This document shows positions 1-64,000 of a stretch of 64,000 nt of DNA, in pieces. The stretch covers positions 1-64,000 of IMG/VR virus record IMGVR_UViG_3300009124_000007, one strand, 5' to 3'. The number at the start of each line of letters is the position of its first letter. Position 1 is the stretch's first letter. The translations under genes were made by a program, and so were the position numbers. The stretch is from a virus. Under the pieces are notes generated by a model. That model had not been told where the DNA came from. It made no database searches and saw only the letters and a list, made by a program, of their open reading frames with translations.

Positions 1-1
1 A

Positions 2-1612
2 CGTGCAAACGTTGCTCAGGAATTTACTAATGAGCAAATTGCCGAATTTGCAAGATGTTATAATGATCCAATATACTTCATCAAGAAATATGTGAAGATC
101 GTGTCGCTAGACAAAGGTCTAGTTCCTTTTGACATGTATCATTTCCAAGAGGAAATGGTAGATAAGTTTCATAAAAATAGATTCAATATTGCAAAACTAC
201 CTCGACAGTCTGGTAAGTCTACTATTGTTACGTCATATCTTCTATGGTATGTTATCTTCAATGATAACGTAAACGTTGCAATTCTAGCAAACAAAGCAGC
301 AACGTCCCGCGAGATGTTGCAACGTTTGCAGAGATCATATGAAAACTTACCTAAGTGGTTGCAGCAGGGTATTGTTCAGTGGAACCGTGGTTCTCTAGAA
401 CTAGAAAATGGTTCAAAACTTATGGCAGCATCCACGTCCAGTTCTGCTGTTCGTGGTATGTCGTTCAACGTCATCTTCCTAGACGAATTTGCGTTCGTTC
501 CAAACCACATTGCAGATGAGTTTTTCTCCTCTGTATATCCTACCATCTCTTCTGGTAAATCTACTAAAGTTATTATCATCTCGACGCCACACGGGATGAA
601 CATGTTCTACAAACTATGGCATGATTCAGAGCGTGGTAAGAATGAGTATGTAAGCACGGAGGTTCATTGGTCAGAAGTTCCTGGGCGTGATGCGAAGTGG
701 AAAGAACAAACCATCGCCAACACGTCTGAGCAGCAGTTCAAAGTTGAGTTTGAGTGTGAGTTCTTAGGATCGGTTGACACGTTGATCAGTCCATCCAAAT
801 TACGAACTATGGTCTACAATGACCCGCTGGTTCAAAATAAAGGTCTCTCAATTTATGAGCAAGCACAGAAAGATCACAACTATGTAATTACGGTTGACGT
901 TGCCAGAGGCGTTTCTGGAGACTATTCCGCATTTGTTGTAATTGATACGACTACTATACCATATAAATTAGTAGCAAAGTATAGGAACAATGAAATCAAA
1001 CCTCTGCTGTTTCCAAACATTATTATTGATGTAGCAAAAAATTATAACCATGCATACATCTTAGTGGAAGTGAATGATGTTGGCGGACAGGTTGCAGACA
1101 TTATTCAGTATGATTTGGAATATGAAAATCTACTGATGGCATCGATGCGTGGTCGTGCTGGTCAAGTAGTTGGTCAGGGGTTCTCTGGTAAGAAAACCCA
1201 GATGGGTGTGAAGATGTCTACGGCAGTAAAAAAAGTTGGATGCCACAATCTAAAAGCATTGATTGAGGAAGATAAACTAATCATCAATGACTATGACATC
1301 ATTGCGGAGTTGACTACATTTATTGAAAAGGGTCAGACATTCCAAGCGGAAGATGGATGCAATGATGACTTGGCAATGTCTCTTGTTATTTTTGCTTGGT
1401 TATCAACGTCGGATTACTTCAAAGAGTTGCATGACGATGATATTCGTAAAAGAATTTATGAGGATCAACGGGAAGCAATTGAGGAAGATATGGCACCATT
1501 TGGATTTATGGATGATGGTCTTGGATCAGATGTAATGGTAGATGCGGATGGTGATGTTTGGCATACGGATGAGTACGGAGATCGTGCGTATATGTGGGAG
1601 TATCTAAGTTGA
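2..1612 (+). CDS. gp17: terminase large subunit (5' truncated by window edge)
   Basis: Frame is open from position 2; Walker A PRQSGKST, Walker B IFLDEFAF, nuclease motifs TVDVARG and NDDL. Confidence 0.97.
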   Translation, partial: RANVAQEFTNEQIAEFARCYNDPIYFIKKYVKIVSLDKGLVPFDMYHFQEEMVDKFHKNRFNIAKLPRQSGKSTIVTSYLLWYVIFNDNVNVAILANKAATSREMLQRLQRSYENLPKWLQQGIVQWNRGSLELENGSKLMAASTSSSAVRGMSFNVIFLDEFAFVPNHIADEFFSSVYPTISSGKSTKVIIISTPHGMNMFYKLWHDSERGKNEYVSTEVHWSEVPGRDAKWKEQTIANTSEQQFKVEFECEFLGSVDTLISPSKLRTMVYNDPLVQNKGLSIYEQAQKDHNYVITVDVARGVSGDYSAFVVIDTTTIPYKLVAKYRNNEIKPLLFPNIIIDVAKNYNHAYILVEVNDVGGQVADIIQYDLEYENLLMASMRGRAGQVVGQGFSGKKTQMGVKMSTAVKKVGCHNLKALIEEDKLIINDYDIIAELTTFIEKGQTFQAEDGCNDDLAMSLVIFAWLSTSDYFKELHDDDIRKRIYEDQREAIEEDMAPFGFMDDGLGSDVMVDADGDVWHTDEYGDRAYMWEYLS

Positions 1613-1628
1613 TTGAAAAATAGCATTT

Positions 1629-1636
1629 TATAAATA
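1629..1636 (+). promoter_or_regulatory. T4-type late promoter TATAAATA
   Basis: Exact consensus upstream of gp18. Confidence 0.85.
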
Positions 1637-1676
1637 TTTCTAGAAACTGTAAAGATTCTTCTAGGAGTTATTAGAC

Positions 1677-3953
1677 ATGCCAGCAAACAATCAGCTATCT
1701 CCTGGTGTAGTTGTTCTAGAACGCGACCTCTCCACTAGTACAGTTGTTCAGCAGGGAACGGTTGGTGCCATTACTGGCCCATTCCGTTGGGGTCCTGTAA
1801 ACGACATTGTAGAGTGCAGTGAAGAGGATGAAGTTGTAGATCGCCTCGGAAAGCCAGATGATTATAACTACGAGCATTGGTTCTCGGGTATCCAATTCTT
1901 GAACTATGGTGGACTGCTCAAAGCAGTTCGTACCGATAGTGCAGATCTCAGAAACGCTGTTTCTGACGGTACTGCTACACCCGTGACAACAGTCAAGATC
2001 AGAAACAGCGAGGAGTACACTCAAACTTTTGAGGATCCTGCAACCGCTAATGCTTGGCACTATGCTGTTCGCTACCCTGGTACTTATGGTAACAGCATCC
2101 GCATGTTTGTTACCGATGCTGGGGCAGACCAAATTTTGGCACTTCCTGCTCCTGGTTCGGGTAACGAATGGGAATTCGTTTCTGCAGAAGCACTATCTGC
2201 TGCTAGTGGTGCTGCTGGTAAGGTTTACAACTACAGAATCAAACTGACCCTAACTTCGGTTGTCGGTACTTTCGCAGCAGGTGCTACAACCACGATCGAT
2301 GTTGCTGGTTCTTCCGAGACTGTCACCGTTGTTTCTTACGACGCCAAAGACAAAGTTCTTGAGATTCAACTTCCTGCAGGTGGTATCACTGGTATTCTTG
2401 CTGCAGCACAAACAATCACTCAGGGTACGAACACTGCTGCTATTGCTGCAGACGGTATCAAGCGTGAACTTCTGGTAAAACTGAATAAGGGTTCTGTCCA
2501 GTTTGCTGCTAGCGATAGCGTCGATGACACTAACACCACTTCGGTTACTGTTGATAGCGTTCGTGCTGAGTATCCTGAGCGTGAGTATCTTCCTGGTCAG
2601 CGTTGGATCAGCGTAGCACCTCGTCCTGGCACTTCCAGAATCGCTTTTGAGAAGGGTGGTCACAATGACGAACTTCACATCCTGGTCATGGACTTCGATG
2701 GTGGTATCACTGGTACTCCATATCAACTAGTTGAGAAGTTCCTCGGTCTCTCTAAAGCAAGCGATGGTAAGAGCACAGTTGGTGAAACCAACTACTATAA
2801 GGAAGTTCTGAAGCAACGCTCTAACTACATCTATTGGGGTGAGCACACCGATGAGGTCTTCGTTTCTGGTGCAAACGAAGCAGCGGGTCAGTGGGGTCTA
2901 ACTCTGGTAAACAGAGAGTTCAACCTAATCCGTAACACTCGTGGTACAGTTCTAGAGCCAGACTCTACTGTTACTCCTACAACTCTCGGTAACTCCACTC
3001 TATTCTATGACTTCAAAGGTGGTGCTGACTATCAACTAGCAGGTAGTGAGTATCAGTTCACTTCTGATGATCTGAACACTGCATACAGCATGTTCGATGA
3101 TCCTGAGTCTGTAGAAGTCAACTACATCATTGGTGGTCCTACTGGCGTTAGCACAAGCGCAGGTCTTGCTAAGATCGCTCACATCGTAACCATTTGCGAA
3201 AAGCGTAAGGATTGCATGGCATTCTTCTCGCCCCTTCGCGCTAACATCATCGGTCGTACCGATGGCGATGAAATCGCAGAAGAGATTGTAAAATTCTTCG
3301 ATATGGCACCTTCGAGTTCCTATGTCGCATATGACTCTGGTTACAAGTACATCTACGATAAGTACAACGATAAGTACCGCTACATCCCATGCAACGCTGA
3401 CGTTGCAGGTCTAGTTCTGAACACTGCACTTACTGCAGAACCATGGTTCTCGCCCGCAGGTTTCCAGCGTGGTAACATCCGCAACAGCATCAGACTCGCA
3501 TTCTCTCCAAAGAAAGACCAGCGCGATAAACTGTATGCATCTCGCGTAAACCCAGTTGTAACATTCCCTGGTCAGGGCACTGTTCTTTACGGTGATAAGA
3601 CCGCTCTGTCCTATGCATCTGCATTCGATAGAATCAACGTTCGTCGTCTATTCATCGTAATCGAGAAGGTTATCTCGACTGCTGCTAAGACAATCCTGTT
3701 TGAGCAGAACGATGACGTAACACGTAACTCCTTTATTGGTCTGGTCGAGCCATACATGCGTGATGTTCAGGGTCGCAGAGGCGTTTATGACTTCCTAGTC
3801 AAGTGTAATGCTTCCAACAACCCACCCGATGCAATTGATCGTGGTGAGTTCTACGCAGAAATCTTCGTAAAACCAACCCGTACCATCAACTACATCACTC
3901 TGACCTTCACTGCAACACGCACTGGAGTCAACTTTAGCGAAGTCGCTAACTGA
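1677..3953 (+). CDS. gp18: tail sheath protein
   Basis: SPGVVVLERD N-terminus; PWFSPAG and FDRINVRRLF motifs; synteny. Confidence 0.97.
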   Translation: MPANNQLSPGVVVLERDLSTSTVVQQGTVGAITGPFRWGPVNDIVECSEEDEVVDRLGKPDDYNYEHWFSGIQFLNYGGLLKAVRTDSADLRNAVSDGTATPVTTVKIRNSEEYTQTFEDPATANAWHYAVRYPGTYGNSIRMFVTDAGADQILALPAPGSGNEWEFVSAEALSAASGAAGKVYNYRIKLTLTSVVGTFAAGATTTIDVAGSSETVTVVSYDAKDKVLEIQLPAGGITGILAAAQTITQGTNTAAIAADGIKRELLVKLNKGSVQFAASDSVDDTNTTSVTVDSVRAEYPEREYLPGQRWISVAPRPGTSRIAFEKGGHNDELHILVMDFDGGITGTPYQLVEKFLGLSKASDGKSTVGETNYYKEVLKQRSNYIYWGEHTDEVFVSGANEAAGQWGLTLVNREFNLIRNTRGTVLEPDSTVTPTTLGNSTLFYDFKGGADYQLAGSEYQFTSDDLNTAYSMFDDPESVEVNYIIGGPTGVSTSAGLAKIAHIVTICEKRKDCMAFFSPLRANIIGRTDGDEIAEEIVKFFDMAPSSSYVAYDSGYKYIYDKYNDKYRYIPCNADVAGLVLNTALTAEPWFSPAGFQRGNIRNSIRLAFSPKKDQRDKLYASRVNPVVTFPGQGTVLYGDKTALSYASAFDRINVRRLFIVIEKVISTAAKTILFEQNDDVTRNSFIGLVEPYMRDVQGRRGVYDFLVKCNASNNPPDAIDRGEFYAEIFVKPTRTINYITLTFTATRTGVNFSEVAN

Positions 3954-3993
3954 TTTATTATTGACTAAATAACCGCTAGGAGAATAAATACCA

Positions 3994-4611: not shown

Positions 4612-4615
4612 TCCG

Positions 4616-4623: not shown

Positions 4624-4645
4624 AAACGGAACTTCAATTATTATA

Positions 4646-23248: not shown

Positions 23249-23787
23249 ATCAATATGAATTCTATGGTTGTGATGAACTACCAGGAATTCTAGATCAGAA
23301 GGAGTGTATCTTTCTAAAACGTGAACTGGATACTGAGTTTGCAACTCGTCCAGTTCATTTCGATGAGGGCAGAGGATTGGTCAAGATGATCTATCGACCA
23401 AAACCTGCCCTCTTTGTATTTGAGAGACTTCACTATTTTCTAGAAAGGTATCTCAATACAAAACTCTATCCAACGTATTGGTTCACCACACAATACTATA
23501 ACAAGTCTTATATGGCAGCACATACGGATAGGGAAGCATGTGAAGTGTCCGTCAGTCTGAATGTACACCAGGATAATCCCTGGCATCTAAAGGTAAAAGA
23601 TAAGACAGGAAAGAAACATTCGCTTGCCACTCCACCAGGAGATGCTGTATTATACAATGGTATAGAGTGTGAGCATTGGAGAACTCCTTACTCAGGTCAA
23701 AACTACACCCAACTATTTTTACATTATGTCAAACAAAGTGGAAAGTACTCAAGATACAGATACGACTCTAACTGTGAGGGAGTTTGA
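23245..23787 (+). CDS. 2OG-Fe(II) oxygenase-like protein
   Basis: HTD...GDAVLY...HWR...QLFLHY. Confidence 0.75.
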   Translation: MNQYEFYGCDELPGILDQKECIFLKRELDTEFATRPVHFDEGRGLVKMIYRPKPALFVFERLHYFLERYLNTKLYPTYWFTTQYYNKSYMAAHTDREACEVSVSLNVHQDNPWHLKVKDKTGKKHSLATPPGDAVLYNGIECEHWRTPYSGQNYTQLFLHYVKQSGKYSRYRYDSNCEGV

Positions 23788-24280
23788 TTACGTCAAACGT
23801 GACTGTGGATCCTGCAATGAATGCTGTAAGGGTTATCTCTACGGTGATGCACATGGCGTTCCATTCTATCCTGATAATCCCTGTCATTATCTTGACATGA
23901 AGTCACCCTGTGGTGGGTGTACAATCTACAACGATCGTCCTGCTATTTGTAGAGACTTCAAGTGCTGGTGGTTGATGAGTCAACAAGTTCCTAACTGGAT
24001 GAAACCAGAACTTTCTAAGGTCATCGTATACACTCGTGAGTTCACCGATGTGGATGGTGAATACTTGGAAGAAGGTGAGACTATTCAGTGGGTTTCTATG
24101 GTAGAATGTGGTCAAAAGGTAGACTCGATTGTTCTGTCTTGGGTCATCCAGCAGGCACAACGCACTCAGTCTAACCTTCATTATCAGGTGAACAAGCAAG
24201 ACCATTATCTTGGTTCTGCTCAGTTCCATCAATTTGTCAGCGATTCAAGTGGTTTCCAATTCAAGCGAAATGAAAAATGA
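23726..24280 (+). CDS. CxxCxxCC cysteine-cluster (YkgJ-like) protein
   Basis: CGSCNECC, PCHYL, GCTIYNDRPAICRDFKC. Confidence 0.8.
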   Translation: MSNKVESTQDTDTTLTVREFDYVKRDCGSCNECCKGYLYGDAHGVPFYPDNPCHYLDMKSPCGGCTIYNDRPAICRDFKCWWLMSQQVPNWMKPELSKVIVYTREFTDVDGEYLEEGETIQWVSMVECGQKVDSIVLSWVIQQAQRTQSNLHYQVNKQDHYLGSAQFHQFVSDSSGFQFKRNEK

Positions 24281-25214
24281 TTTTCTGTGGGTAGAGAAGT
24301 ATCGCCCTCAAACTGTGGAGGAGTGCATCCTCCCAGAAGAGACGAAAGAGATCTTTCAGGGATTTGTAGAACAGGGTGAGATCCCTAACCTGCTCCTGTC
24401 TGGTTCTGCTGGTGTTGGTAAGACCACCATTGCTAAGGCACTCTGCCGTCAACTTGGCGTGGACTGTATGGTCATCAACGGATCCGACGAGGGTCGTTTC
24501 TTGGACACTGTGAGGAACCAGGCAAAGACCTTCGCAAGCACCGTCTCTCTGACCTCTAGCGCCCGCCATAAGGTCCTTATCATCGATGAGGCAGACAACA
24601 CCACCCCAGACGTGCAACTGCTCCTGAGGGCGTCTATTGAGGAGTTCCAGAAGAACTGTAGGTTTATTTTCACCTGCAACTTCAAGAACAAGATTATCGA
24701 ACCTCTGCACTCTCGTACCACTGTTGTTGACTTCAACATCAATGGTAAGACAAAGCAGCAACTCTGTGCCAGTTTCATGAAACGCTGCCAGCATATTCTC
24801 GATGAGAATGAGATCGAGTATTCACCTAAGGTTGTGGCAGAACTGATCATGAAGTTCTTCCCCGATTTCCGTCGCACTCTGAATGAACTGCAGCGGTATT
24901 CAACCACTGGAAAGATTGACACTGGTATCATGGCAGTGTGTTCAGATGCTACCTATGATGCACTTGTGAAGTCCATGAAGGACAAGAAGTTCACTGATGT
25001 GAAGAAGTGGGTTGAGCAGAATCTAGATAACTCTCCTGCTATGATTATGCGTGGAATTTACGATCGCATGTATAATGTTATGCAGAAGCAGAGCATTGCT
25101 GCTGCTGTTTTGATCATTGCTGAGTATCAGTACAAATCTGCTTTTGTTGCAGACCAAGAAATCAACCTGCTTGCCTGTTTGACCCAACTTATGATGGAGT
25201 GTGAATTCGTATGA
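24270..25214 (+). CDS. gp44: clamp loader large subunit
   Basis: LWVEKYRP, GSAGVGKTT, IIDEAD. Confidence 0.97.
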   Translation: MKNDFLWVEKYRPQTVEECILPEETKEIFQGFVEQGEIPNLLLSGSAGVGKTTIAKALCRQLGVDCMVINGSDEGRFLDTVRNQAKTFASTVSLTSSARHKVLIIDEADNTTPDVQLLLRASIEEFQKNCRFIFTCNFKNKIIEPLHSRTTVVDFNINGKTKQQLCASFMKRCQHILDENEIEYSPKVVAELIMKFFPDFRRTLNELQRYSTTGKIDTGIMAVCSDATYDALVKSMKDKKFTDVKKWVEQNLDNSPAMIMRGIYDRMYNVMQKQSIAAAVLIIAEYQYKSAFVADQEINLLACLTQLMMECEFV

Positions 25215-26047
25215 ACCTAAAAACCCCTCTTCGCTATCCTGGTGGTAAATCTCGTGCCACTAAAAAACTCGCACAGTTTCTGCCTGACATGAGTCAGGTT
25301 CGTGAGTTCCGTGAACCCTTCCTGGGAGGTGGTTCTGTGGCACTCTACATGACTCAGATGTACCCACATATGTCTGTATGGGTCAATGACCTGTATGAAC
25401 CTTTAGTGAACTTCTGGAAGGTCTTGCAGACCGATGGTAAGAAGATGCGCGATGAACTCGTTCAACTCAAGAATCGCCATCCAGATCCTGCATCAGCGAA
25501 GGTTTTGTTTCTAGAGGCAAAAGAATATCTACAGCATTCTATCAAGAAGACTGAACCTTTTCATCGTGCTGTTAGTTTCTATGTGGTGAACAAGTGTTCG
25601 TTCTCTGGTCTCACTGAGTCTTCTTCTTTCTCGAATGCAGCATCAGATTCCAACTTCTCGATGCGTGGCATTGATAAACTGCCCGAATACCAGATGCTGA
25701 TTCGTAACTGGAAAATCACAAATCATTCTTACACTCAGGTGCTGGGTAATGGGGAAGACATCTTCATCTATCTCGATCCCCCATACGATATCAAAGACAA
25801 TCTGTATGGTAATAAAGGTAATATGCACGCTACATTCAATCACGATACCTTTGCAAAGGATTGTGAGAATCATGCAGAACGAGTCAAGATGATGGTCTCA
25901 TACAACTCCAGTCAATTGATTCGAGATCGATTCATGAACTGGCATCCTTATGAGTTTGACCATACCTATACCATGCGATCTGTTGGTGATTACATGGCAG
26001 AGCAACAAGAACGTAAAGAATTGGTACTAATCAACTATGGCATTTGA
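25211..26047 (+). CDS. dam: DNA adenine methyltransferase (Dam family)
   Basis: PLRYPGGKS, EPFLGGGSV, YLDPPY. Confidence 0.93.
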   Translation: MNLKTPLRYPGGKSRATKKLAQFLPDMSQVREFREPFLGGGSVALYMTQMYPHMSVWVNDLYEPLVNFWKVLQTDGKKMRDELVQLKNRHPDPASAKVLFLEAKEYLQHSIKKTEPFHRAVSFYVVNKCSFSGLTESSSFSNAASDSNFSMRGIDKLPEYQMLIRNWKITNHSYTQVLGNGEDIFIYLDPPYDIKDNLYGNKGNMHATFNHDTFAKDCENHAERVKMMVSYNSSQLIRDRFMNWHPYEFDHTYTMRSVGDYMAEQQERKELVLINYGI

Positions 26048-29008: not shown

Positions 29009-29461
29009 TCAGTCAATGACAGTGATCTCAGTAACGAATTGTCCTGTTGCAGATGAACCAGCACCACCAGCAGTCAGCGTGATAGCATGAGTTCTGTCAA
29101 TCGTACCTGCAAGTGTGCTAGCAGAACCAGCAGCATAAGAGCTAAGGTTACCGAAGTTGGGAACATCACCTGTGCTAACAGCAGATGCAGGAACACTATC
29201 TGCTGCGTTGTATGTTTCACTCAACGACCAATCTTGACCAGATGTAGTGACAGTGTATGTGCCAGCACCAGTGGAAACACCACCCATCGTGCCTGCCGTG
29301 ATGTTAGAACCAGAAGCAGAATAACTACCACCGATTCTCACTGCAGTAGAGCGAGCAGCATCAACAGTCAGTTGGACCGAAGAGGCGTGCTTAGTAACAA
29401 GACCACCAGCGTATGCAGGGGTTGCCATCAAAATCATTACGATAGGAAGAAGTTTACGCAT
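29009..29461 (-). CDS. hypothetical secreted Gly/Ser/Thr-rich protein
   Basis: Signal peptide MRKLLPIVMILMATPAYA. Confidence 0.8.
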   Translation of the reverse strand: MRKLLPIVMILMATPAYAGGLVTKHASSVQLTVDAARSTAVRIGGSYSASGSNITAGTMGGVSTGAGTYTVTTSGQDWSLSETYNAADSVPASAVSTGDVPNFGNLSSYAAGSASTLAGTIDRTHAITLTAGGAGSSATGQFVTEITVID

Positions 29462-31285: not shown

Positions 31286-31499
31286 TTATCTGATCGGTAG
31301 GGTTCAGGAACTAGATGAAGAACCCTCAGTCTTTATTGAGAAGTGTTATCGTATTACTGGCGAAGATATGGAACCATATCCTCGTTACAGCAAACAACGC
31401 GATCTCTTCTTGACATCCGACTCGATCTTTACTATAGTGGATCCGAACAAAGCAGTGTTAGAACTGTATTTGGATAAGGAGAAAAGCGAACCTTCATGA
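31239..31499 (+). CDS. conserved hypothetical protein upstream of gp43
   Basis: GGAGG RBS; SDSIFTIVDP. Confidence 0.75.
   Translation: MDNVKVLLLKNGNLNDYLIGRVQELDEEPSVFIEKCYRITGEDMEPYPRYSKQRDLFLTSDSIFTIVDPNKAVLELYLDKEKSEPS
31410..31438 (+). promoter_or_regulatory. sigma70-type promoter for gp43, embedded in the upstream ORF
   Basis: TTGACA-17-TATAGT. Confidence 0.7.
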
Positions 31500-33976
31500 G
31501 TTTCTATACTAACGTCGAACTGATCGGTGACAACGTGTTGTATCGTGGGTATGAGAATGGGCAGCGAGTCCAGTCTCGTACCCATTTTTCTCCCACGCTG
31601 TTTATTACTTCAAACAAGAAGGAGAAGCACAAGACTCTAACTGGAAAGGACGTAAAACCAATCCAGTTTGAATCGCCTCGTGAAGCACGAGAGTTCATCG
31701 GTAAGTATGAAGATGTGCATGGCGTAGAAGTTCATGGATATGAGAGGTTCGTTTATCAATTCATCTCAGACCAGTTCCCTGGCGAGATTGAATATGATAT
31801 GACCCAGATGAATATCATTACGATTGACATTGAGGTTGCATGTGAGAATGGATTCCCTGATGTAGAAAGTGCAGCAGAAGAAATGCTGCTGATCACAGTC
31901 AAGAATATGATGACAAAAGAAGTCATCACTTGGGGCACTAGGGAATACAATACGGATCAAATTGAATATCGTGTCTTCTGGACTGAGCAGGAGATGCTAA
32001 ACGATTTTGTTGGGTGGTGGGTAGATAACACCCCCGATGTTGTAACAGGATGGAACTGTAACCTGTATGACATTCCATACCTGTGTCGTCGTATCAATCG
32101 TGTCCTAGGTGAGAAGTGGATGAAGTCCCTGTCACCATGGAACAAAGTGAACGAGCGAGAGATTGTAATCATGGGCAGGACTCAACTTGCCTATGAAGTT
32201 GTTGGTGTGTCTGTTCTGGACTATCTGGATCTGTATAAGAAGTTTACTTATACCAACCAAGAGTCATACAAACTAGACCATATTGCCAATGTAGAACTGG
32301 GGCAGAAGAAACTCGATCACTCCGAGTTCGATACTTTCAAAGATTTCTATACACAAGATTGGCAGAAGTTCGTCGTCTACAACATTCTTGACGTGGAACT
32401 GGTGGACAGACTTGAAGATAAAATGAAGTTGCTTGAACTTGCATTGACTATGGCATATGATGCCAAAGTGAACTTTGAGGATGTTTATAGTCAGGTCCGC
32501 ATGTGGGACACTCTAATCTATAATTATCTAAAGGATCGCAACCTCGTGGTTCCACCACGAAGAGGTGCCAAGAAAGATGAAAAGTATGCAGGTGCTTATG
32601 TCAAAGAACCGATTCCTGGAAAGTATGATTGGGTTGTGTCTTTTGACCTCAACTCTCTGTACCCTCATCTTATTATGCAGTACAACATCTCGCCAGAGAC
32701 ACTGGTCGAGAAACGACATCCCTATGCCACAGTTGACAAAATACTTTCTAAGCAAATAGAAGTTGATAGAGAGTATTGTGTATGTGCTAATGGTGCTCAG
32801 TACCGCAAAGATGTGCATGGGTTCCTACCCGAAATGATGCAAAAAATTTATGATGAACGAAAGATTTACAAGCGTAAGATGTTGGATGCAAAACAAGAAT
32901 ACGAAGCATCTCCGTCCGATTCACTTCAAAAGACCATTTCTAGATACAACAACTTCCAAATGGCAAGAAAGATCCAACTCAACTCTGCCTATGGTGCCAT
33001 TGGAAACCAATACTTCCGCTACTACAATCTGGCAAATGCTGAGGCGATCACTCTCTCGGGTCAAGTCTCGATTCGTTGGATTGAGGGGAAGGTAAACGAC
33101 TACCTAAACAAACTACTAAAAACGGAGGACCACGATTATGTTATTGCCAGTGATACTGACAGCATCTATATCTGTCTTGATCTACTTGTCCGTAGCGTAT
33201 TTGATGTACAGAATGTTCCTGCAGAGAGGATCGTCAACTTTCTCGATGCTGCCTGTAAGGAGCGAATCGAACCATTCATCGAACGATCCTACCAGGAACT
33301 AGCAGACTATGTTGGTGCTTATGAACAGAAGATGTTCATGAAGCGCGAGAACATTGCTAACAAAGGTATCTGGACTGCTAAGAAGCGATACATCCTCAAC
33401 GTCTGGGACAGTGAGGGTGTTCGCTATGAGAAACCTAAACTGAAGATGATGGGTATTGAAGCAGTCAAGTCTTCAACCCCTGGTCCCTGCAGGCAAAAGA
33501 TCAAAGACGCACTGCAGGTTATTATGAATGGTACTGAAGAAGAGGTGCAGAAATTTATTGCTGACTTCCGAGAAGAGTTTCGATCGTTGCCAGTCGAAGA
33601 TATTTCATTCCCACGAGGTTGTAACAATCTAAATAAGTGGTCGAGTCCAGCGACCATCTACTCGAAGGGAACACCTATCCATGTACGTGGCGCTTTGCTC
33701 TACAACTTCCACATCAAAAATAATAAACTCACTCACAAGTATCAACTTATTCAGGATGGTGATAAAGTCAAGTTTGTTTATTTGAAGACCCCAAACAAAA
33801 TCGGTGAGAACGTTATTAGTTTCATCGGTACGTTTCCTATGGAATTGCAACTTGACAATCAGGTAGACTATGACCTACAATTCGACAAGAGTTTTCTTGA
33901 ACCATTGAAAGTCATCATGGACACTATTGGGTGGAAGTCCGAAAAAGTAGCATCACTGGAGTTTCTATTTGGATGA
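31496..33976 (+). CDS. gp43: family B DNA polymerase
   Basis: ExoI DIEV; SFDLNSLYP, KIQLNSAYG, SDTDS; no intein seen. Confidence 0.98.
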   Translation: MSFYTNVELIGDNVLYRGYENGQRVQSRTHFSPTLFITSNKKEKHKTLTGKDVKPIQFESPREAREFIGKYEDVHGVEVHGYERFVYQFISDQFPGEIEYDMTQMNIITIDIEVACENGFPDVESAAEEMLLITVKNMMTKEVITWGTREYNTDQIEYRVFWTEQEMLNDFVGWWVDNTPDVVTGWNCNLYDIPYLCRRINRVLGEKWMKSLSPWNKVNEREIVIMGRTQLAYEVVGVSVLDYLDLYKKFTYTNQESYKLDHIANVELGQKKLDHSEFDTFKDFYTQDWQKFVVYNILDVELVDRLEDKMKLLELALTMAYDAKVNFEDVYSQVRMWDTLIYNYLKDRNLVVPPRRGAKKDEKYAGAYVKEPIPGKYDWVVSFDLNSLYPHLIMQYNISPETLVEKRHPYATVDKILSKQIEVDREYCVCANGAQYRKDVHGFLPEMMQKIYDERKIYKRKMLDAKQEYEASPSDSLQKTISRYNNFQMARKIQLNSAYGAIGNQYFRYYNLANAEAITLSGQVSIRWIEGKVNDYLNKLLKTEDHDYVIASDTDSIYICLDLLVRSVFDVQNVPAERIVNFLDAACKERIEPFIERSYQELADYVGAYEQKMFMKRENIANKGIWTAKKRYILNVWDSEGVRYEKPKLKMMGIEAVKSSTPGPCRQKIKDALQVIMNGTEEEVQKFIADFREEFRSLPVEDISFPRGCNNLNKWSSPATIYSKGTPIHVRGALLYNFHIKNNKLTHKYQLIQDGDKVKFVYLKTPNKIGENVISFIGTFPMELQLDNQVDYDLQFDKSFLEPLKVIMDTIGWKSEKVASLEFLFG

Positions 33977-37811: not shown

Positions 37812-39233
37812 ATGGCTTCCACAATGTATAATATGCCTCTTGCTGAGGCTAAAAAGAAAGCAAAGACCATGAAGATTGATACACTCTTCAATAAAGCCGT
37901 GGCGGGAATACCAGAACCAGAATACTTCTTTGCGGATTCTCTGTGGAGACCCAATACAAGATCTATGTGGACGATCAAAACTGGTGAAAACAATATTGAT
38001 AAAATTGAAGAAATTCTTAGTAAAGAAGATCCGAATGTAGATATCAAAGTCAAAGCAGGAAAAGCGACTTTGGATTATCAAATGGGTCAGTATAAAATTA
38101 GATGGATTGCAAGTAATAAGAAATCTGCAGGAGCAGCAGATGCTAAGACAACTGCTATGCAAGAGAGAGCATCTGCATGGATTTTTCGTAGAGTCTTGAA
38201 TGATAACCAATCTTATAATTCTTGGACAGACATCAAACAAGATGCTAAGTATGGTGAACTTGAAAAGATATATCCAAATGTAGAAGAAGAGTGGTTGAAA
38301 GTATTCTATGCACAGCAAGCAAGAATGCTCAAAGAATTCGCACCAACGAAATTTTCTGAGTTCAATCGTGATGGTGGATTCATGGATTATATTACTAAAG
38401 TTGTTAGGGAAAAATTTGGTATCAGTAAGAAAGATACTTGGAACCCAGCAGACATTTGGTGCATTCAGGATGAGGCTGGTGTGACCAGATTGATTGAACA
38501 AACTGTAGATGGTAATGGATCTCAAACTATTCTTGAATTGAACGCAGTTCTTAGGAAGTTGTATCGTGATCGTAAGGTAGTTGGAATCTCTCTAAAGAAA
38601 GTATCGGGCAAAGTTGCTAAGTTTGAAGAAGTCAATGTTAGAGAAGATGCATTGAATGATGATTATAACTTTGATATCAAGAGTTATGAATGCAAAGTCA
38701 ATTTGAAAAATGGTGATGAGTGGGATTCGCTTGCATGTAGAATCATTGTTGGATCTAATGATGCTGAATATAACTTTCAGATTCAGGGGAATGATACCAC
38801 TAAGGAATCAAATCTAAAATTTGAACCAACACAAAAGGGAGCACAAGCAGCTCGTATGGGTAAGGCACCAGTTGACATGGTTGCTAAACTAATTGAAGAT
38901 AATAAAATGGATTTTGAAAATAATCATAATAAGTACCCAGCTAATGCAACTGAGTTCAATAAAAAGGCAGATGAATATAAGAAACTATTCAGCAAACTAA
39001 AAACAAAGGGAGTTGATGTTGGAGGAGTTACAAAGCAGACTGACTTTCTTGTAAATATTCAAACTGTATTTGCAAACAAACCACATACAGCAAAGGCAAA
39101 ACTCATGGAGATGAAATTTATTGAAGCAGTTATTGATCTGGATGATAAGAAACGAGAAGAGTTCATGACTGATATGGTCTTCATCGCTGCCAAGAAAGGC
39201 AAACGCTTTGGACCATTTGGCAAACTGTACTAA
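37812..39233 (+). CDS. hypothetical protein, possible PD-(D/E)xK-variant nuclease
   Basis: 473 aa; QE...WNPADIW...GISLKK pattern; A/T-rich codons. Confidence 0.6.
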   Translation: MASTMYNMPLAEAKKKAKTMKIDTLFNKAVAGIPEPEYFFADSLWRPNTRSMWTIKTGENNIDKIEEILSKEDPNVDIKVKAGKATLDYQMGQYKIRWIASNKKSAGAADAKTTAMQERASAWIFRRVLNDNQSYNSWTDIKQDAKYGELEKIYPNVEEEWLKVFYAQQARMLKEFAPTKFSEFNRDGGFMDYITKVVREKFGISKKDTWNPADIWCIQDEAGVTRLIEQTVDGNGSQTILELNAVLRKLYRDRKVVGISLKKVSGKVAKFEEVNVREDALNDDYNFDIKSYECKVNLKNGDEWDSLACRIIVGSNDAEYNFQIQGNDTTKESNLKFEPTQKGAQAARMGKAPVDMVAKLIEDNKMDFENNHNKYPANATEFNKKADEYKKLFSKLKTKGVDVGGVTKQTDFLVNIQTVFANKPHTAKAKLMEMKFIEAVIDLDDKKREEFMTDMVFIAAKKGKRFGPFGKLY

Positions 39234-52113: not shown

Positions 52114-52140
52114 ATATGGTAACAATAGTTACCACTTATA

Positions 52141-52186
52141 CGTTCATCTTACAATTATAGTAAGACGCAAGTAAGTCGCGGAACGG
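52141..52186 (+). ncRNA. glutamine riboswitch-like element 1 (glnA / Downstream-peptide family)
   Basis: P1 CGTTC/GAACG; P2 TCTTAC/GTAAGA; CGCAAGTAAG junction. Confidence 0.65.
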
Positions 52187-52188
52187 AG

Positions 52189-52402
52189 CGTTCATCCTAT
52201 GTTATCATTGGCACTCATCTTTTTTAGTCACGTCCCAGTGGAGAATTATCTTCGCTGTGAAGACTATGAATGGTTGAAGCAGGGACTACAAGAGACAACT
52301 CTTTTCACTCCCTTTGAGAAATCTGATATTCTCATCCACTGGATGAATCATACAGATCCTCATTGTTTTGATAGCAAGGACGCACACGACTGAAGGAACG
52401 GG
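52189..52402 (+). ncRNA. Downstream-peptide (glutamine-II) riboswitch-like element 2 with a very large P2 loop
   Basis: CGTTCATCCT...AGGACGCACACGACTGAAGGAACGGG; upstream of a YRG-motif peptide. Confidence 0.7.
52199..52393 (+). CDS. 64-aa ORF inside the riboswitch P2 loop
   Basis: ATG in the P2 5' strand, TGA within the conserved GACTGAAGG; GGAG upstream. Confidence 0.65.
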   Translation: MLSLALIFFSHVPVENYLRCEDYEWLKQGLQETTLFTPFEKSDILIHWMNHTDPHCFDSKDAHD

Positions 52403-52436
52403 ATTTAATTATCTCATTTCTTTAGGAGTACCTACA

Positions 52437-52601
52437 ATGAACACACTAACCCTTATCAAGAAGCAGATCCAGAAGCAAGCAGCACTTCACGATGCTCAGA
52501 TTGCGATGACCACTTATCGTGGTGTTCGCTATGAGTGCCAGCAAGGTGCTGAAGAAGTTCATGGAACATTCTGCTATCGCGGTCACACTTATAACAAGTG
52601 A
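52437..52601 (+). CDS. DUF4278-like YRG-motif peptide
   Basis: AGGAG RBS; TYRGVRY and CYRGHTY. Confidence 0.8.
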   Translation: MNTLTLIKKQIQKQAALHDAQIAMTTYRGVRYECQQGAEEVHGTFCYRGHTYNK

Positions 52602-52602
52602 T

Positions 52603-52770
52603 ATGGAAAACTATGTCTATCATCATGATGACATGGATAAAGATAGCAGACCACCCAGTTGTTATCAACTCAAATATAGAGGAGTAACATACTGGTCCTG
52701 CTATAATATGCACTTGCATGAATACTTTGAGCGTCTGCTTGAAGTTGAAGCAAGTAACAGGGGACGGTGA
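52603..52770 (+). CDS. second YRG-motif peptide
   Basis: LKYRGVTY; starts immediately after the previous stop. Confidence 0.7.
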   Translation: MENYVYHHDDMDKDSRPPSCYQLKYRGVTYWSCYNMHLHEYFERLLEVEASNRGR

Positions 52771-53040: not shown

Positions 53041-53193
53041 ATGGAACAGAGAAAGCTAAAAGAGATTATCAATGATCTAGAGAAAGTTCTAGATGATTTG
53101 AAATCAGAGGTCTATTCGGACCCTTCTAAATATCTTCAAGACATTGGATCCAATGTCAAGATTGGAGATGATAACGATGGAGAAGCAGATTGA
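53041..53193 (+). CDS. small hypothetical protein (50 aa, not in the ORF track)
   Basis: MEQRKLKEIINDLEKVLDDLKSEVYSD. Confidence 0.65.
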   Translation: MEQRKLKEIINDLEKVLDDLKSEVYSDPSKYLQDIGSNVKIGDDNDGEAD

Positions 53194-53626
53194 TTATGAA
53201 AACCCCTGGATTTATGAAGGTACTCCCTTCACTAGCGAGGATATTGGTGATTACTACGGGTTTGTGTACAGTATCCGTAACCTCATTTCTGATAGGCGTT
53301 ACATTGGCAGAAAGTACTTCTGGTCGTTACGAAAGCCTAGAGGCAAAAGTAGGAGAGTTAGAAGTGAAAGTGACTGGAAGAAATACTATGGCAGTTCTGA
53401 TGAAGTTGCTGCAGATGTCAAAGAGTATGGAAAGATACAGTTTGAAAGAACTATAATCAGCCTACATAAAACAAAGGGTCAATGCAATTTTGAAGAGACC
53501 CGACAACTTTTTCTACACAATGTACTAACGGAGGAGATGTCAGATGGAACACCTGCTTACTACAACAGCAATATTCTCGGTCGGTACATGCGGAAGGACT
53601 ATTTCCGAGGTGGCACTTGCTCTTGA
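53177..53626 (+). CDS. GIY-YIG family endonuclease
   Basis: GFVYSIRN...YIGRK, YYGSS, YYNSNI. Confidence 0.82.
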   Translation: MEKQIDYENPWIYEGTPFTSEDIGDYYGFVYSIRNLISDRRYIGRKYFWSLRKPRGKSRRVRSESDWKKYYGSSDEVAADVKEYGKIQFERTIISLHKTKGQCNFEETRQLFLHNVLTEEMSDGTPAYYNSNILGRYMRKDYFRGGTCS

Positions 53627-53669: not shown

Positions 53670-53897
<228 letters not shown>

Positions 53898-60193: not shown

Positions 60194-60200
60194 TATAATA

Positions 60201-60225
60201 AGGGGGTCTTCGGATCCCTTTTTTT
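60201..60225 (+). terminator. intrinsic terminator after psbD
   Basis: GGGGTC-TTCG-GATCCC followed by a T-run. Confidence 0.8.
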
Positions 60226-60633
60226 ATGACCTACGAAGCAACGGTCGAATTCAAGTTTGATGCTACCTACACTCACTCCTATGGTGGATTTGGTTCTACT
60301 ATTGGTGATGATGACTTCCTACCTGAAGAGCATTATGTGATCACTGCACCTGCTGCTGATCTCAATGCCAAACAGTATTTCAAACTGTTTGAGAAGTTCA
60401 TGCTATGTGTAGGCATGTGCCCCTCATCTATCAGATCAGGTGCTATGTCGTTGGTCTTCAACGATTATGTTACTGAGGAAGAGCAGCGTAAGGTCTGTAA
60501 AGAGTATGAACTGACCATGGATGAGGACCTGGAGAAGAAATACCAGGACTTCAAAGAGCGTGATGCTCAGTGGGCAAAGATGAATGCTCATTATAAAAAT
60601 AACTTTGAAGATAGTGCTAATGGAGTAGCATGA
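60226..60633 (+). CDS. hypothetical protein
   Basis: PEEHYVITAPAADLN, typical of cyanophage ORFs (recalled). Confidence 0.75.
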   Translation: MTYEATVEFKFDATYTHSYGGFGSTIGDDDFLPEEHYVITAPAADLNAKQYFKLFEKFMLCVGMCPSSIRSGAMSLVFNDYVTEEEQRKVCKEYELTMDEDLEKKYQDFKERDAQWAKMNAHYKNNFEDSANGVA

Positions 60634-61028
60634 CTGAAAGGGATCGTAAAGCAGAGTATCAACGTTTATCACCAGAAGCAAAGGCAAGAAAGAGTGCTCG
60701 CAATCAACTACCAGAAGTAAAACAAAAGAAAAAAGAATACTATCAAAGAGACAAACATTTGATAAAGGAAAGATACCATCAGAATTTTGCTATTGTGGTC
60801 AAGTTCTTGGAAGAAAGAGATAACCATGAGGGATGTATCAAATGTGGTAGCAAAGAACGACTAGAACTTGATCATATCAATCAACAAGACAAAAGTTGGA
60901 ATCCAAAGCGTAGTATGGCTTCCAAAGTTTTATCAGAAAACTTTTGGGAAGAAATCAACAAGTGCCAACTCTTATGTTTTGATTGTCACAAACAAAAAAC
61001 CATTCAACAACTTAGGAAAACCCCATGA
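60630..61028 (+). CDS. HNH endonuclease
   Basis: CIKCG, LELDHIN, KCQLLCFDCHKQKT; basic N-terminus; A-rich composition. Confidence 0.85.
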   Translation: MTERDRKAEYQRLSPEAKARKSARNQLPEVKQKKKEYYQRDKHLIKERYHQNFAIVVKFLEERDNHEGCIKCGSKERLELDHINQQDKSWNPKRSMASKVLSENFWEEINKCQLLCFDCHKQKTIQQLRKTP

Positions 61029-61366: not shown

Positions 61367-61371
61367 TCTAA

Positions 61372-61557
61372 ATGTGGAGAATTTGGGCAAAAGCATTAGG
61401 GGAGAAGCATGGACGAAACGACAAAGAAGCAGATCTTATTGCTTGCATACGCACCATTATTTTTATTTCTTACTTGGTCACTAACTGTTTTATTATATCT
61501 GGAGTAATTCGACACTGGAATGACGTACCACAATCCCAAATCGAAACCACCAAATGA
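61372..61557 (+). CDS. hypothetical membrane protein
   Basis: MWRIWAKALGEK...GVIRHW. Confidence 0.72.
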   Translation: MWRIWAKALGEKHGRNDKEADLIACIRTIIFISYLVTNCFIISGVIRHWNDVPQSQIETTK

Positions 61558-61666
61558 TGATGAACTTATGGGAGAAATCGATGTCGATCGTGACATGCTT
61601 GAATGGTTGTATGGATTTGATGAAGACGAAGACACCTATGATGATCTCAGTGGTACAGAACTATGA
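61520..61666 (+). CDS. small acidic hypothetical protein (not in the ORF track)
   Basis: 48-aa ORF filling the gap. Confidence 0.4.
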   Translation: MTYHNPKSKPPNDDELMGEIDVDRDMLEWLYGFDEDEDTYDDLSGTEL

Positions 61667-61705
61667 CATATAGATATAGAGTGAGTGTTTGAACCAGATA
61701 CATAG

Positions 61706-63043
61706 ATGGCATTTTACCGTCCTGAAGGAAACTTTGGACCTGTATGTGATCCTATTGGAGTTATCACAGCAGGGTCGGATCCTGTTGTCATTGATGAACA
61801 AATTTCTGATAATGATTTCAAACCCTGCAAAGGGTTTGCTGAGTATCCACCCAATCCATCTTGGGTAACAATGCCAACTCAAACTAGAGTTCTTTGTAGG
61901 GAGATTGAAGGTGGTGCTGTCGAATATAAGTTTGAAACTGACATTGAATCGGATGCCCTTTATGTGGCAGAAGAGATCAATAGACGTATTGCCGAACTAA
62001 CACTAGCAGCAGTACCACCTGCCGTTCCATTTGAACCATATGATCCCAATAGATATTGCCAAGAATTTTTTGGTGATACAAAATTGTATCCTGAAACACT
62101 AAACGGGGTAACAACTTACTATAAACTAAAGTCAGTACCGAGATCTTATAGTGTCACCCACACTACCTGGGATGATGAGATGAATGTAGAAGCAGCATGG
62201 ATCTCACAGGGTGTCTGTAGTTTTGAAGATAAAACAATTGCTGGTGGTACTGCTGCATATGTTGTTACTGACTTCACTGTAGACACTACAGGAACACACA
62301 CTCTAAGATATAGATTTTCTAAACAGGGTGAGGTGTGGTTGAATTACTTTGATGAGAATCCAAACAATAGAATACAGTTGTTGAATGTAACTGAGACCAG
62401 ATCTTCTTATGACAACTCACAGTTTGAAACCAAACAAGTAACCCTTACTGAGGGAGATTATAAACTTTATATTGTAATTGAAAATCCAACAGTAGGAACT
62501 TTCAAGAAACTATGGGATGATTCTCCTGCTGCTGTAGGTATGCAAATCTATGAGGGTTCTTACAGCAGCAGTACGGTGAATGGTATACCTACCTCTGTGG
62601 GTATCGTAACATCAAGCAGTCAGGGTTCTACATACACAAGTTCCTGGGGTCAGAATTGGATCCGAGATGATGATGATCAGTCTGGAGTGTTTGCACTTTC
62701 TGAAGGTGGACAAGAGTACAATGTTAGTTTCTCTAACTCTGGTCTCACAGGAACAGCAAAGGTAAAACCAATTGTGACTCATACATATAACGCAACCACC
62801 CAACAAAATGAGTACATCACTACTGCAGAATGGACAGTCCATGATGTAACTGCATTTGGTAGTGGCAAATCAGTTGACGATAGGATCACTATCAGTTATA
62901 CTGGATCTGTTGGTGGAACAATTACTGCAGACGTAAAAGTCTTTGCAGTTACAAATCAAACTACCACTACAGGTACAAAGATTTGGTCCACAAGTGAAAA
63001 CCTTACAGGTTATTTTAGGTCTACAACTCCCTTTGATGATTGA
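61706..63043 (+). CDS. probable virion structural protein (Thr/Ser-rich, beta-rich)
   Basis: FGPVCD N-terminus; VTLTEGDYKL and IWSTS patterns. Confidence 0.65.
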   Translation: MAFYRPEGNFGPVCDPIGVITAGSDPVVIDEQISDNDFKPCKGFAEYPPNPSWVTMPTQTRVLCREIEGGAVEYKFETDIESDALYVAEEINRRIAELTLAAVPPAVPFEPYDPNRYCQEFFGDTKLYPETLNGVTTYYKLKSVPRSYSVTHTTWDDEMNVEAAWISQGVCSFEDKTIAGGTAAYVVTDFTVDTTGTHTLRYRFSKQGEVWLNYFDENPNNRIQLLNVTETRSSYDNSQFETKQVTLTEGDYKLYIVIENPTVGTFKKLWDDSPAAVGMQIYEGSYSSSTVNGIPTSVGIVTSSSQGSTYTSSWGQNWIRDDDDQSGVFALSEGGQEYNVSFSNSGLTGTAKVKPIVTHTYNATTQQNEYITTAEWTVHDVTAFGSGKSVDDRITISYTGSVGGTITADVKVFAVTNQTTTTGTKIWSTSENLTGYFRSTTPFDD

Positions 63044-63315
63044 TGGAAATTAGTAAAGACAATCTACCAGATTCTGTAAAGAAACTAATCGGTGACGATG
63101 AGTTTGTCATTGAAACTTTTTGTCCAGATCAAGACCCTGCTCTTACCGAAGCATTCGGTATGGATCCTGTCGAACGTGAGATTATGAAACTGCAATCTCA
63201 ATATCAAATGAGAAAAGCAGTAGATGAACTGAACAAAGTTCGCTTCCCAAAGAAATATAAGAAGCGTAAAACTTCTAAAAAACATTCAGTTTTGGACGAG
63301 TTGAAAAACTTATAA
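63043..63315 (+). CDS. hypothetical protein
   Basis: Coupled ORF with a basic C-terminus. Confidence 0.6.
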   Translation: MEISKDNLPDSVKKLIGDDEFVIETFCPDQDPALTEAFGMDPVEREIMKLQSQYQMRKAVDELNKVRFPKKYKKRKTSKKHSVLDELKNL

Positions 63316-63413
63316 ATAAATTCACGCAACCAATTGTTACGTTTTACAACAGAGGATGGTGCCTCAACTACTCGCGCCAATCTGTTGACCTGACCACGGT
63401 TATGTGGTATAAT
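63311..63413 (+). promoter_or_regulatory. late promoter (63311-63318) plus sigma70 promoter (63385-63413)
   Basis: TATAAATA; TTGACC-17-TATAAT. Confidence 0.7.
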
Positions 63414-63493
63414 AAACAAAGCGAAGGGTAGTCGAACCCTTCCGACATCTGTGGGTAACCATTCCACAAGCAAAAATTACGAGGTAAACTACT

Positions 63494-63865
63494 ATGATCA
63501 AATCCGCATTCGCAGCTCTGGCTGCTGCTCCCCTTTTCGCTGGCGCTGCTTTTGCAGGTCCTTACGTGAACGTCGAAGCTAACTCTGGTTGGACTGGTTC
63601 TAACTATGGTGGCACCGCTATCGATAACCATATTGGTTACGAAGGTGCTCTGGGTGAGTCTGCTTCTTACTACGTTCAGGGTGGCGCTACCGTCAAACTT
63701 CCTGATGGTGGTGACGCTAAGTGGGTTCCTTCTGGTAAGGCAGGCGTTGGCGTCGGTCTGACCGATTCTCTCGGTGCTTACGGCGAAGTCTCCTTCGTTG
63801 GCAGCGGCGAGTCTGGTGTTGACCGTGGTTACGGCACCAAAGCTGGTCTCAAGTGGACCTTCTGA
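63494..63865 (+). CDS. host-like small outer-membrane beta-barrel protein
   Basis: Signal peptide ending AFA; amphipathic strands; C-terminal LKWTF. Confidence 0.75.
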   Translation: MIKSAFAALAAAPLFAGAAFAGPYVNVEANSGWTGSNYGGTAIDNHIGYEGALGESASYYVQGGATVKLPDGGDAKWVPSGKAGVGVGLTDSLGAYGEVSFVGSGESGVDRGYGTKAGLKWTF

Positions 63866-63888
63866 TCCTTCCTACATAGCGTAGAAGT

Positions 63889-63912
63889 GGGGGACCTTCG
63901 GGTCCCCTTTTT
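63889..63912 (+). terminator. intrinsic terminator
   Basis: GGGGACC-TTCG-GGTCCCC followed by a T-run. Confidence 0.9.
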
Positions 63913-63926
63913 ATTCGGAGATAATT

Positions 63927-64000
63927 ATGAACTTCAAAGTATATACACGTACAGGTTGCCCTTATTGTGATAAAGTAAAGGCAGTTCTTAGTGGCAAAGG
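63927..64000 (+). CDS. nrdC: glutaredoxin (3' truncated by window edge)
   Basis: MNFKVYTRTGCPYCDKVK; GGAG RBS. Confidence 0.85.
   Translation, partial: MNFKVYTRTGCPYCDKVKAVLSGK

Follow-up and report, generated by a model that had tools for sequence, protein, structure and literature searches.

Loss of TTAA, CCGG and other short words from a T4-like cyanomyovirus genome and a candidate phage-borne nuclease behind the loss of TTAA

Virulent double-stranded DNA phages reportedly avoid short palindromes that act as restriction sites, as is said to have been described by Sharp in 1986, by Rocha and co-workers in 2001 and by Rusinov and co-workers in 2018; Staphylococcus phage K lacks GATC, for example, and Bacillus phages lack GGCC. 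Other viruses carry DNA-cleaving enzymes of their own. The chloroviruses encode type II restriction-modification (R-M) enzymes, including CviAII/M.CviAII of PBCV-1 and CviJI (RG^CY) of IL-3A, and T4 breaks down host DNA with EndoII (denA) and EndoIV (denB) while protecting itself by hydroxymethyl-cytosine. Here, these systems are compared with a stretch of 64,000 bases (b) of viral DNA (hereafter the window), positions 1 to 64,000 of the IMG/VR record IMGVR_UViG_3300009124_000007, in which TTAA, CCGG and a series of other short words are absent or nearly so. The window is the first part of a 76,966-b viral contig with an estimated completeness of 41%, and its source is a T4-like cyanomyovirus (family Kyanoviridae) of estuarine and coastal metagenomes.

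As in classic restriction-site avoidance, short palindromes in this DNA lie far below the numbers predicted from composition and codon usage, sites have been removed synonymously, and the pattern of missing words is lineage-specific. Unlike classic avoidance, at least 13 words are affected at once, two 4-mers stand at zero or one copy in 77 kb, and the 180-kb genome of the cultured Synechococcus phage S-ShM2 has zero TTAA; the hosts belong to the bacteria with the fewest R-M systems, other phage families infecting them show no 4-mer avoidance, and the nuclease suspected in the case of TTAA is phage-borne. The missing 4-mers are the recognition words of the type IIP enzymes MseI/Tru9I (TTAA) and HpaII/MspI (CCGG). 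The chloroviruses are comparable as lytic viruses of a phototroph with a type II-like nuclease able to degrade host DNA, and RGCY, the word of CviJI, is depleted here; however, they protect themselves by methylation, whereas S-ShM2 has neither a PF01555 methylase nor TTAA, and no CviJI-like gene was identified here, though all four RGCY words are depleted alike. Similarly, in the scheme proposed below the nuclease of a T4-type phage would attack host DNA while phage DNA is exempt, as in T4, but cyanomyoviruses lack denA, denB and ndd (PMC2984593), and the exemption would come from site absence and not from base modification.

In the explanation that we regard as probable, if only just, each copy of a word would expose the genome to a sequence-specific endonuclease, and short, almost all palindromic words would have been purged, mainly synonymously, in three layers. 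The first, found in nearly all marine T4-like cyanophages, would comprise the absolute loss of CCGG, GCATGC, GGTACC and GTGCAC and a 4–7-fold reduction of RGCY. The second, the loss of TTAA, would belong to a clade, being common to S-ShM2 and 11 metagenomic contigs, and would most likely have originated with the lineage's own small PD-ExK type II restriction-like nuclease, carried without a beta-class (PF01555) methylase; this nuclease would cut the DNA of the host or of rival phages, the phage being immune solely by having no sites. The third layer, private to this phage, would be the loss of CAAGG/CCTTG, an asymmetric word of the kind usually recognised by type IIS or type III enzymes.

Extent of the depletion

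TTAA occurs once in the window, against 423 copies expected from mononucleotide composition, 176 from a maximal-order Markov model and 291±16 from dinucleotide-preserving shuffles, and CCGG does not occur at all (134, 48 and 74±9.5 expected under the same models); both counts are unchanged over the full contig. The original prediction, made by eye, had claimed a single TTAA in the spacer after a riboswitch where several hundred copies would be expected, no CCGG in the stretches checked, and abundant GATC and CTAG. These claims are borne out: the expectation is 176–423 depending on the null model, the spacer follows a small open reading frame (ORF) of a riboswitch-like cassette, CCGG is missing from window and contig alike, and the window holds 349 GATC and 155 CTAG. 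When the codons of 105 ORFs were shuffled synonymously 300 times, the coding DNA was expected to contain 264±11 TTAA and 71±7 CCGG and contains none of either, with the controls GATC (389 vs 365) and CTAG (189 vs 195) at expectation. The depletion is present in each of the three codon phases and extends to non-coding DNA; there are 26 TAA stop codons, and not one has a T before it. Codon bias is therefore excluded as its cause, and neither a ratio near one nor a sufficient codon bias, the two outcomes that the original prediction had named as fatal to it, was found.

Alignment of ten conserved genes with the phage S-RIM8 and the contigs G001 and G002 shows how the sites were lost. The relatives carry TTAA at 172 positions, at 91 of which the same amino acids are encoded here by ATC-AAx, CTC-AAx, TTC-AAx or CTA-Axx, in agreement with the earlier remark that CTA-A, ATC-AA and TTC-AA are used where TTA-A, ATT-AA and TTT-AA would be natural. 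The usual replacements of CAAGG in these alignments are CAG-GGx or AAA-Gxx. Sites were thus lost mainly by synonymous substitution, with the protein sequence kept.

The depletion extends to further words. CAAGG/CCTTG is present in 2 copies in the window, against 121±10 in shuffles and 130 (80 + 50) in synonymous-codon shuffles. RGCY is reduced approximately 7-fold (90 vs 650±22 in shuffles), and its words are affected alike, with observed/expected ratios of 0.18 for AGCT, 0.25 for GGCC and 0.25 for AGCC/GGCT, while other NGCN words (TGCA, CGCA, GCGC) are spared, with ratios of at least 0.6. Nine of the 42 testable palindromic hexamers have zero copies in the window (AGCGCT, CACGTG, CTCGAG, GACGTC, GCATGC, GGTACC, GTCGAC, GTGCAC, and TTCGAA) against 1 of 1900 non-palindromic hexamers; the corresponding numbers of absent hexamers are 13 of 50 against 0 of 1947 in S-ShM2 and 11 of 52 against 0 of 1975 in S-RIM8. 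No avoidance was found in the window for interrupted palindromes such as GGWCC, CCWGG and GANTC or for CGATCG (14 vs 11 expected). Because codon bias is excluded, palindromes are affected and non-palindromes are not, and the changes are synonymous, strong DNA-level selection by sequence-specific nucleases is well supported, as the original prediction had supposed from the completeness of the depletion. Full-text searches of open-access literature yielded no account of cyanomyoviruses avoiding TTAA or CCGG. The S-ShM2 genome has been publicly available since 2010, and the word "restriction" does not appear in the paper that describes it.

Distribution of the missing words among cyanophages

The loss of TTAA is confined to one group of phages. 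S-ShM2 (NC_015281) has 0 TTAA in 179,563 b, against 1347 expected from base composition and 586 from a Markov model, together with a single CCGG; a metagenomic relative (L002/G004) has 0 TTAA in 36 kb, and a gene specific to the clade led to 11 further IMG/VR contigs, all of them free of TTAA. The TTAA-free sequences form one clade in the trees of both gp43 (support 96/92) and gp44 (97/95), with all others outside; the purge therefore arose once and has been kept through divergence to a median protein identity of approximately 65–68%. TTAA and CAAGG stand at normal levels in close relatives whose codon usage is the same, and no TTAA-free island longer than 2.6 kb was found in TTAA-normal relatives. 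CAAGG is also normal in the sister lineages (78 vs 77 expected in G004), and its loss, limited to this phage, is the most recent layer.

The loss of CCGG, in contrast to that of TTAA, does not distinguish this phage from its relatives. The original prediction had treated it as special and had proposed a comparison with related cyanomyoviruses, which sets the TTAA loss apart as the property of one clade and shows the CCGG loss to be a family-wide trait of marine T4-like cyanophages. Among 80 IMG/VR loci around gp43 fetched for this comparison, CCGG is at zero in approximately 75, and RGCY is 3–6-fold low in nearly all. S-PM2, S-IOM18 and the complete 171-kb genome of S-RIM8 are likewise free of CCGG; in S-RIM8, 149 copies are expected from a Markov model and 290 from base composition. 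GCATGC and GGTACC are absent from all six larger genomes examined, and GTGCAC from five, with one copy in G002. Individual lineages bear marks of their own: GATC is avoided by S-RIM8 (105 vs 676) and S-RIM50-like phages, ACGT by G001 (14 vs 105), and AWCCAC by both G001 and G002.

CCGG near expectation is found only in one small group consisting of G001 (69 vs 81), G002 (48 vs 60) and, in part, L064. In G001 and G002, which are contigs of 29–35% completeness, no PF00145 gene, no protective methylase and no lost nuclease was found; they carry pstS, zwf, gnd, PTOX, and one unknown gene in addition, and relative to S-RIM8 they lack a UvsY-like gene and a 2OG-Fe(II) oxygenase. G002 also holds, at 29082–29276, a weak, stop-ridden remnant of a nuclease of the S-ShM2 type. 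A near-core cyanophage endonuclease is absent from S-PM2 (PMC3037559) and is excluded as the agent of the CCGG loss, since S-PM2 without this gene also has 0 CCGG.

Beyond the marine T4-like cyanophages, CCGG and RGCY are kept by phages of the same host genera, namely the podoviruses Syn5, P60, and P-SSP7, the siphovirus P-SS2 and the non-T4 myovirus S-TIM5, and they are not avoided in the freshwater phage S-CRM01 or the vibriophage KVP40. Five of the hexamers avoided by the myoviruses (TTCGAA, GTCGAC, CTCGAG, TGCGCA, and GTGCAC) are avoided by unrelated cyanopodoviruses or the siphovirus as well. In the Prochlorococcus podovirus P-SSP7, GGCC is depleted (6 vs 40) as the sole such word, and CTCGAG, GAATTC, GAGCTC, and TGCGCA are lacking. 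The Pelagibacter myophage HTVC008M is depleted of RGCY but not of CCGG; its GATC is also depleted (16 vs 78), and its SAR11 hosts are said to carry few R-M systems.

The copies that survive in the window are found close together. The single TTAA and both copies of CAAGG lie within 170 b, all in the small-ORF cassette of a glutamine-riboswitch-like element (52138–52620), which consists of ORFs of 64 and 54 aa headed by the aptamer. Nowhere else in the region are the nucleotides as conserved as in this cassette, which has 83–86% identity to distant cyanomyoviruses. When six phages are aligned, each CAAGG copy falls within an AGCAAGG stretch that varies little or not at all, and on the simplest reading the two copies may have been kept because nucleotide-level constraint outweighs avoidance at these two places. 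Downstream of the first copy, a 24-b block, GACGCA.ACGACTGAAGGAACGGG, is invariant in six divergent cyanomyoviruses and spans the stop of the first ORF. The sole TTAA lies 13 b past the stop of the small ORF that follows the aptamer, and its position is not conserved in relatives. The 24-b block resembles the aptamer core and could be another RNA element; a search for a second aptamer around 52340–52404 gave no Rfam match.

Candidate nucleases and other genes

Candidate genes for the TTAA purge were sought in S-ShM2 among ORFs without a counterpart in the TTAA-bearing sequences compared. One of these, located directly after the T4-GC36 helicase, encodes a predicted solitary PD-ExK type II restriction-like nuclease (Table 1), in which the D..ExK motif is invariant among homologues. 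The only profile that this protein matches is a generic PADLOC type II one. The PF01555 (beta-class) methylase is absent from the contig studied here, from the whole genome of S-ShM2, and from G004, S-RIM8, and G001, and the profile of the nuclease family has no match in the complete, TTAA-normal genomes of S-RIM8 and P-RSM4. The PF01555 methylase locus of P-RSM4, which occupies the same position after the T4-GC36 helicase, was considered as a nuclease cassette and rejected; it is TTAA-rich and has no nuclease homologue.

A homologue of the nuclease with 36% identity is encoded in an unrelated cyanomyovirus lineage (G311, L228, L230, and L231; gp43 58% identical, GC 0.36–0.38), where its gene is immediately followed by that of a PF01555-like methylase. 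In three flanking regions of this second lineage, the observed and expected (base composition) numbers of TTAA are 1/207, 3/205 and 9/110. The 133-kb contig G311, with the nuclease–methylase pair, has 114 TTAA against approximately 1170, and its first 16.3 kb, around the pair, are TTAA-free. In the same contig, GCGC (0 vs 43) and CGCG (2 vs 27) are depleted. The nuclease family and TTAA depletion therefore coincide in two independent lineages, with L227 and L229 as exceptions, and the depletion is complete without the PF01555 methylase (S-ShM2 clade) and partial with it (second lineage).

Table 1. Positions and properties of the features discussed in the text (coordinates refer to the window unless an accession is given)
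Feature	Sequence	Position	Strand	Remarks
Purged region	window	1–64000 and rest of contig	.	TTAA, CCGG, CAAGG/CCTTG and nine hexamers purged; RGCY ~7-fold down
Cysteine-cluster protein, 184 aa	window	23726–24280	+	CxxCxxCC/YcgN-like; phrog_9155; between 2OG-oxygenase-like ORF and gp44
D12-class (Dam-like) N6-adenine DNA methyltransferase	window	25211–26047	+	between clamp-loader genes
gp43 DNA polymerase	window	31496–33976	+	tree placement; TTAA-free phages form one clade
ORF of 473 aa	window	37812–39233	+	phrog_1462 (function unknown); no Pfam or PADLOC match
Glutamine-II/glnA-type riboswitch-like aptamer	window	52138–52192	+	Rfam Glutamine-II 28.6 bits, E 2.7e-4; below the 33-bit gathering score
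CAAGG, first copy	window	52375–52379	+	in the stretch AGCAAGGACGCA.ACGACTGAAGGAACGGG, near nucleotide-invariant across six divergent cyanomyoviruses
Sole TTAA	window	52405–52408	+	in 44-b spacer between the 64-aa ORF (52199–52393) and the next small ORF (start 52438)
CAAGG, second copy	window	52542–52546	+	in invariant AGCAAGG, second small ORF; orientation as first copy
SegE-type GIY-YIG homing endonuclease	window	53144–53626	+	69% identity to S-ShM2, 78% to S-RIM8
Putative nuclease, 168 aa	S-ShM2, NC_015281	47030–47536		directly after T4-GC36 helicase; PADLOC REase_II, E 1.4e-22

Two genes of the contig itself had been named by the original prediction for correlation with the loss of TTAA, and neither tracks it. 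The 473-aa ORF has homologues in S-ShM2 and the sister contig, but it bears no nuclease signature, and a 60%-identical homologue is present in L058, where TTAA is normal (129 vs 123). Similarly, the GIY-YIG gene encodes a homing endonuclease and is found alike in TTAA-free S-ShM2 and TTAA-normal S-RIM8. The only gene on the contig that coincides with the TTAA-free state is that of the cysteine-cluster protein, all 13 carriers of which have 0 or 1 TTAA; this link is confounded by descent, because all carriers form one clade. The AlphaFold model of the protein is poor (predicted local distance difference test 53.5), and neither Foldseek nor a PDB sequence search gave a match. Homologues of the D12-class methyltransferase occur in 16 of 19 large related loci irrespective of the avoidance pattern, TTAA-normal relatives included. 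There is no simple link between this Dam-like methylase and GATC avoidance, as GATC-poor S-RIM8 keeps a 69%-identical homologue despite its 6-fold GATC depletion; the target may differ from GATC, or GATC methylation may be a liability.

The T4-type replication genes of the contig include those of the gp43 polymerase, the gp44 clamp loader, gp41, UvsX, nrdA/B, and a MazG protein, accompanied by cobS-like, hsp20, psbA, and psbD genes. The closest deposited phages are Synechococcus cyanomyoviruses at merely 76–78% nucleotide identity. Contigs of independent estuary metagenomes hold identical pieces, so that the contig represents a real, recurrent phage and no assembly artefact, and seawater runs hold close variants. 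Among the 40 variants listed out of 547 from metagenome contigs, one creates a TTAA, and it lies on a high-depth foreign contig; conserved genes attract the contigs of other cyanophages. In addition, a tRNA gene (53824–53897, 73 bits) directly follows the GIY-YIG gene, and an HNH endonuclease-like ORF (60630–61028) lies downstream of psbD.

Competing explanations and their consequences

From these comparisons, we infer that the S-ShM2 nuclease cleaves TTAA, that the phage studied here carries such a nuclease in the unsampled 59% of its genome, and that sequence-specific nucleases drove the first and third layers. Several observations weigh against this reading. The nuclease gene is not on the contig, which at 41% completeness does not cover the T4-GC36 helicase locus, and for this phage its presence is suggested by clade membership. 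Within the S-ShM2 clade, presence of the gene and loss of TTAA are confounded by descent, which leaves effectively two independent lineages. L227, with a nuclease 78% identical, keeps 6 TTAA in 10.6 kb, and L229, with one 74% identical, has normal TTAA on its 3.7 kb (GC 0.47, CCGG present). Furthermore, neither phage nor host sequences yielded a nuclease that would account for CCGG, RGCY, the hexamers or CAAGG, and host enzymes may account for at least part of the hexamer list, because unrelated podo- and siphoviruses share five of its members.

This last point belongs to classical restriction avoidance, which we consider unlikely as a full account, though it is the alternative that deserves most weight. 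According to it, all the missing words, TTAA included, would be sites of R-M systems scattered across populations of Synechococcus, Cyanobium and Prochlorococcus; generalist phages with unmodified DNA would meet many hosts, and very large populations would let even rare systems purge synonymous sites. The missing words are unbroken palindromes of 4 or 6 bp in the style of type II enzymes, the fingerprints are lineage-specific, as with GATC in S-RIM8, ACGT in G001 and AWCCAC in G001 and G002, and many nucleases would be required if phage genes were to account for a dozen words or more. Moreover, C5 methyltransferases are present in 37 of 301 host-family genomes, in one of which the gene stands beside a weak ApaLI-like match, one of two weak RE_ApaLI matches in the set. 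However, the RE_HpaII and Endonuc-MspI families have no match in any of the 301 genomes (the MspI control likewise had no match anywhere), and loci of marine and estuarine Synechococcus and Cyanobium keep CCGG (every ~190 b), RGCY (every ~36 b) and TTAA at expectation. Syn5, P60, P-SSP7, P-SS2, and S-TIM5 keep CCGG and RGCY on the same host genera, marine picocyanobacteria are reported to have few R-M systems (PMC6708340, PMC8262939), and in two lineages the depletion of TTAA goes together with a phage nuclease family. Host enzymes may nevertheless play a part, since restriction enzymes easily escape recognition and even weak selection is enough when phage populations are huge.

The original prediction had offered two causes, a host MseI-like or HpaII-like system and a phage nuclease against which the phage is protected by lacking the site. 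The former found no direct support, both in the host genomes and in the CCGG kept by hosts and other phage families. The latter is supported for TTAA, indirectly, through the S-ShM2 nuclease and the second lineage, and not for CCGG, for which no phage nuclease was found. For TTAA, a phage nuclease that spares its own genome for want of sites is the more likely of the two, though encoded by a gene other than those originally named, and for this contig it would follow from the relationship to S-ShM2.

It is improbable that the family-wide words (CCGG, RGCY, and several hexamers) were instead removed under attack by the nucleases of co-infecting cyanomyoviruses rather than by those of hosts. Such warfare between phages would suit the solitary restriction-like nuclease of S-ShM2, the nuclease–methylase pair of the second lineage, and the confinement of CCGG and RGCY avoidance to marine T4-like cyanophages, with other phage families, S-CRM01 and KVP40 unaffected. 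However, no gene for a CCGG- or RGCY-type nuclease was identified in any phage examined, the near-core endonuclease fails for CCGG in view of S-PM2, and the CCGG-bearing G001 and G002 show no telling loss or gain of genes in their available parts; podoviruses in the same cells should also suffer, yet they keep the sites.

Still less credence can be given to avoidance of methylation, in which orphan methyltransferases of the host would act on the missing words and methyl-dependent (type IV) enzymes of the next host would attack phage DNA so modified. Solitary methyltransferases for GATC, GGCC, CGATCG, and RCCGGY (Anabaena DmtA-D) are common in cyanobacteria, which speaks for this possibility, but the five marine Synechococcus genomes nearest in psbA all lack a C5 methyltransferase, neither GATC nor CGATCG is avoided here, and TTAA and CAAGG would be left unexplained. 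Finally, codon usage, amino-acid composition or mutational bias without site-specific selection, for which nothing speaks beyond the general rarity of CG-containing trinucleotides, is refuted by the codon-preserving shuffles, by depletion in all codon phases and in non-coding DNA, and by the normal TTAA and CAAGG of close relatives with the same codon usage.

Although the avoidance itself is textbook, its usual cause fits poorly here, because the most extreme avoiders infect R-M-poor hosts on which other phage families show no 4-mer avoidance. The fingerprints (TTAA, CAAGG, GATC, ACGT, AWCCAC, and others) are cheap lineage markers that may link uncultured cyanophages to hosts or competitors, and they tell cloners which enzymes never cut these genomes. 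Cyanomyoviruses lack denA, denB and ndd, yet host DNA is degraded (PMC2984593, PMC6708340), so that a phage-borne, site-specific route of breakdown is worth testing, and a self-imposed purge of TTAA would provide a testable answer to how this degradation is achieved, a question that the literature has raised. In a wider and more tentative reading, which we hold to be possible without yet calling it probable, marine T4-like cyanophages may turn solitary type II restriction-like nucleases on the DNA of hosts or rival phages, immune by having deleted their own target sites; the TTAA-free clade would exemplify this, and the lack of CCGG throughout the family might be an earlier case that has become fixed. 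If true, avoidance fingerprints would record the phages' own nuclease arsenal and not host immunity, and "immunity by site absence" would join the known ways in which a virus survives its own weapon.

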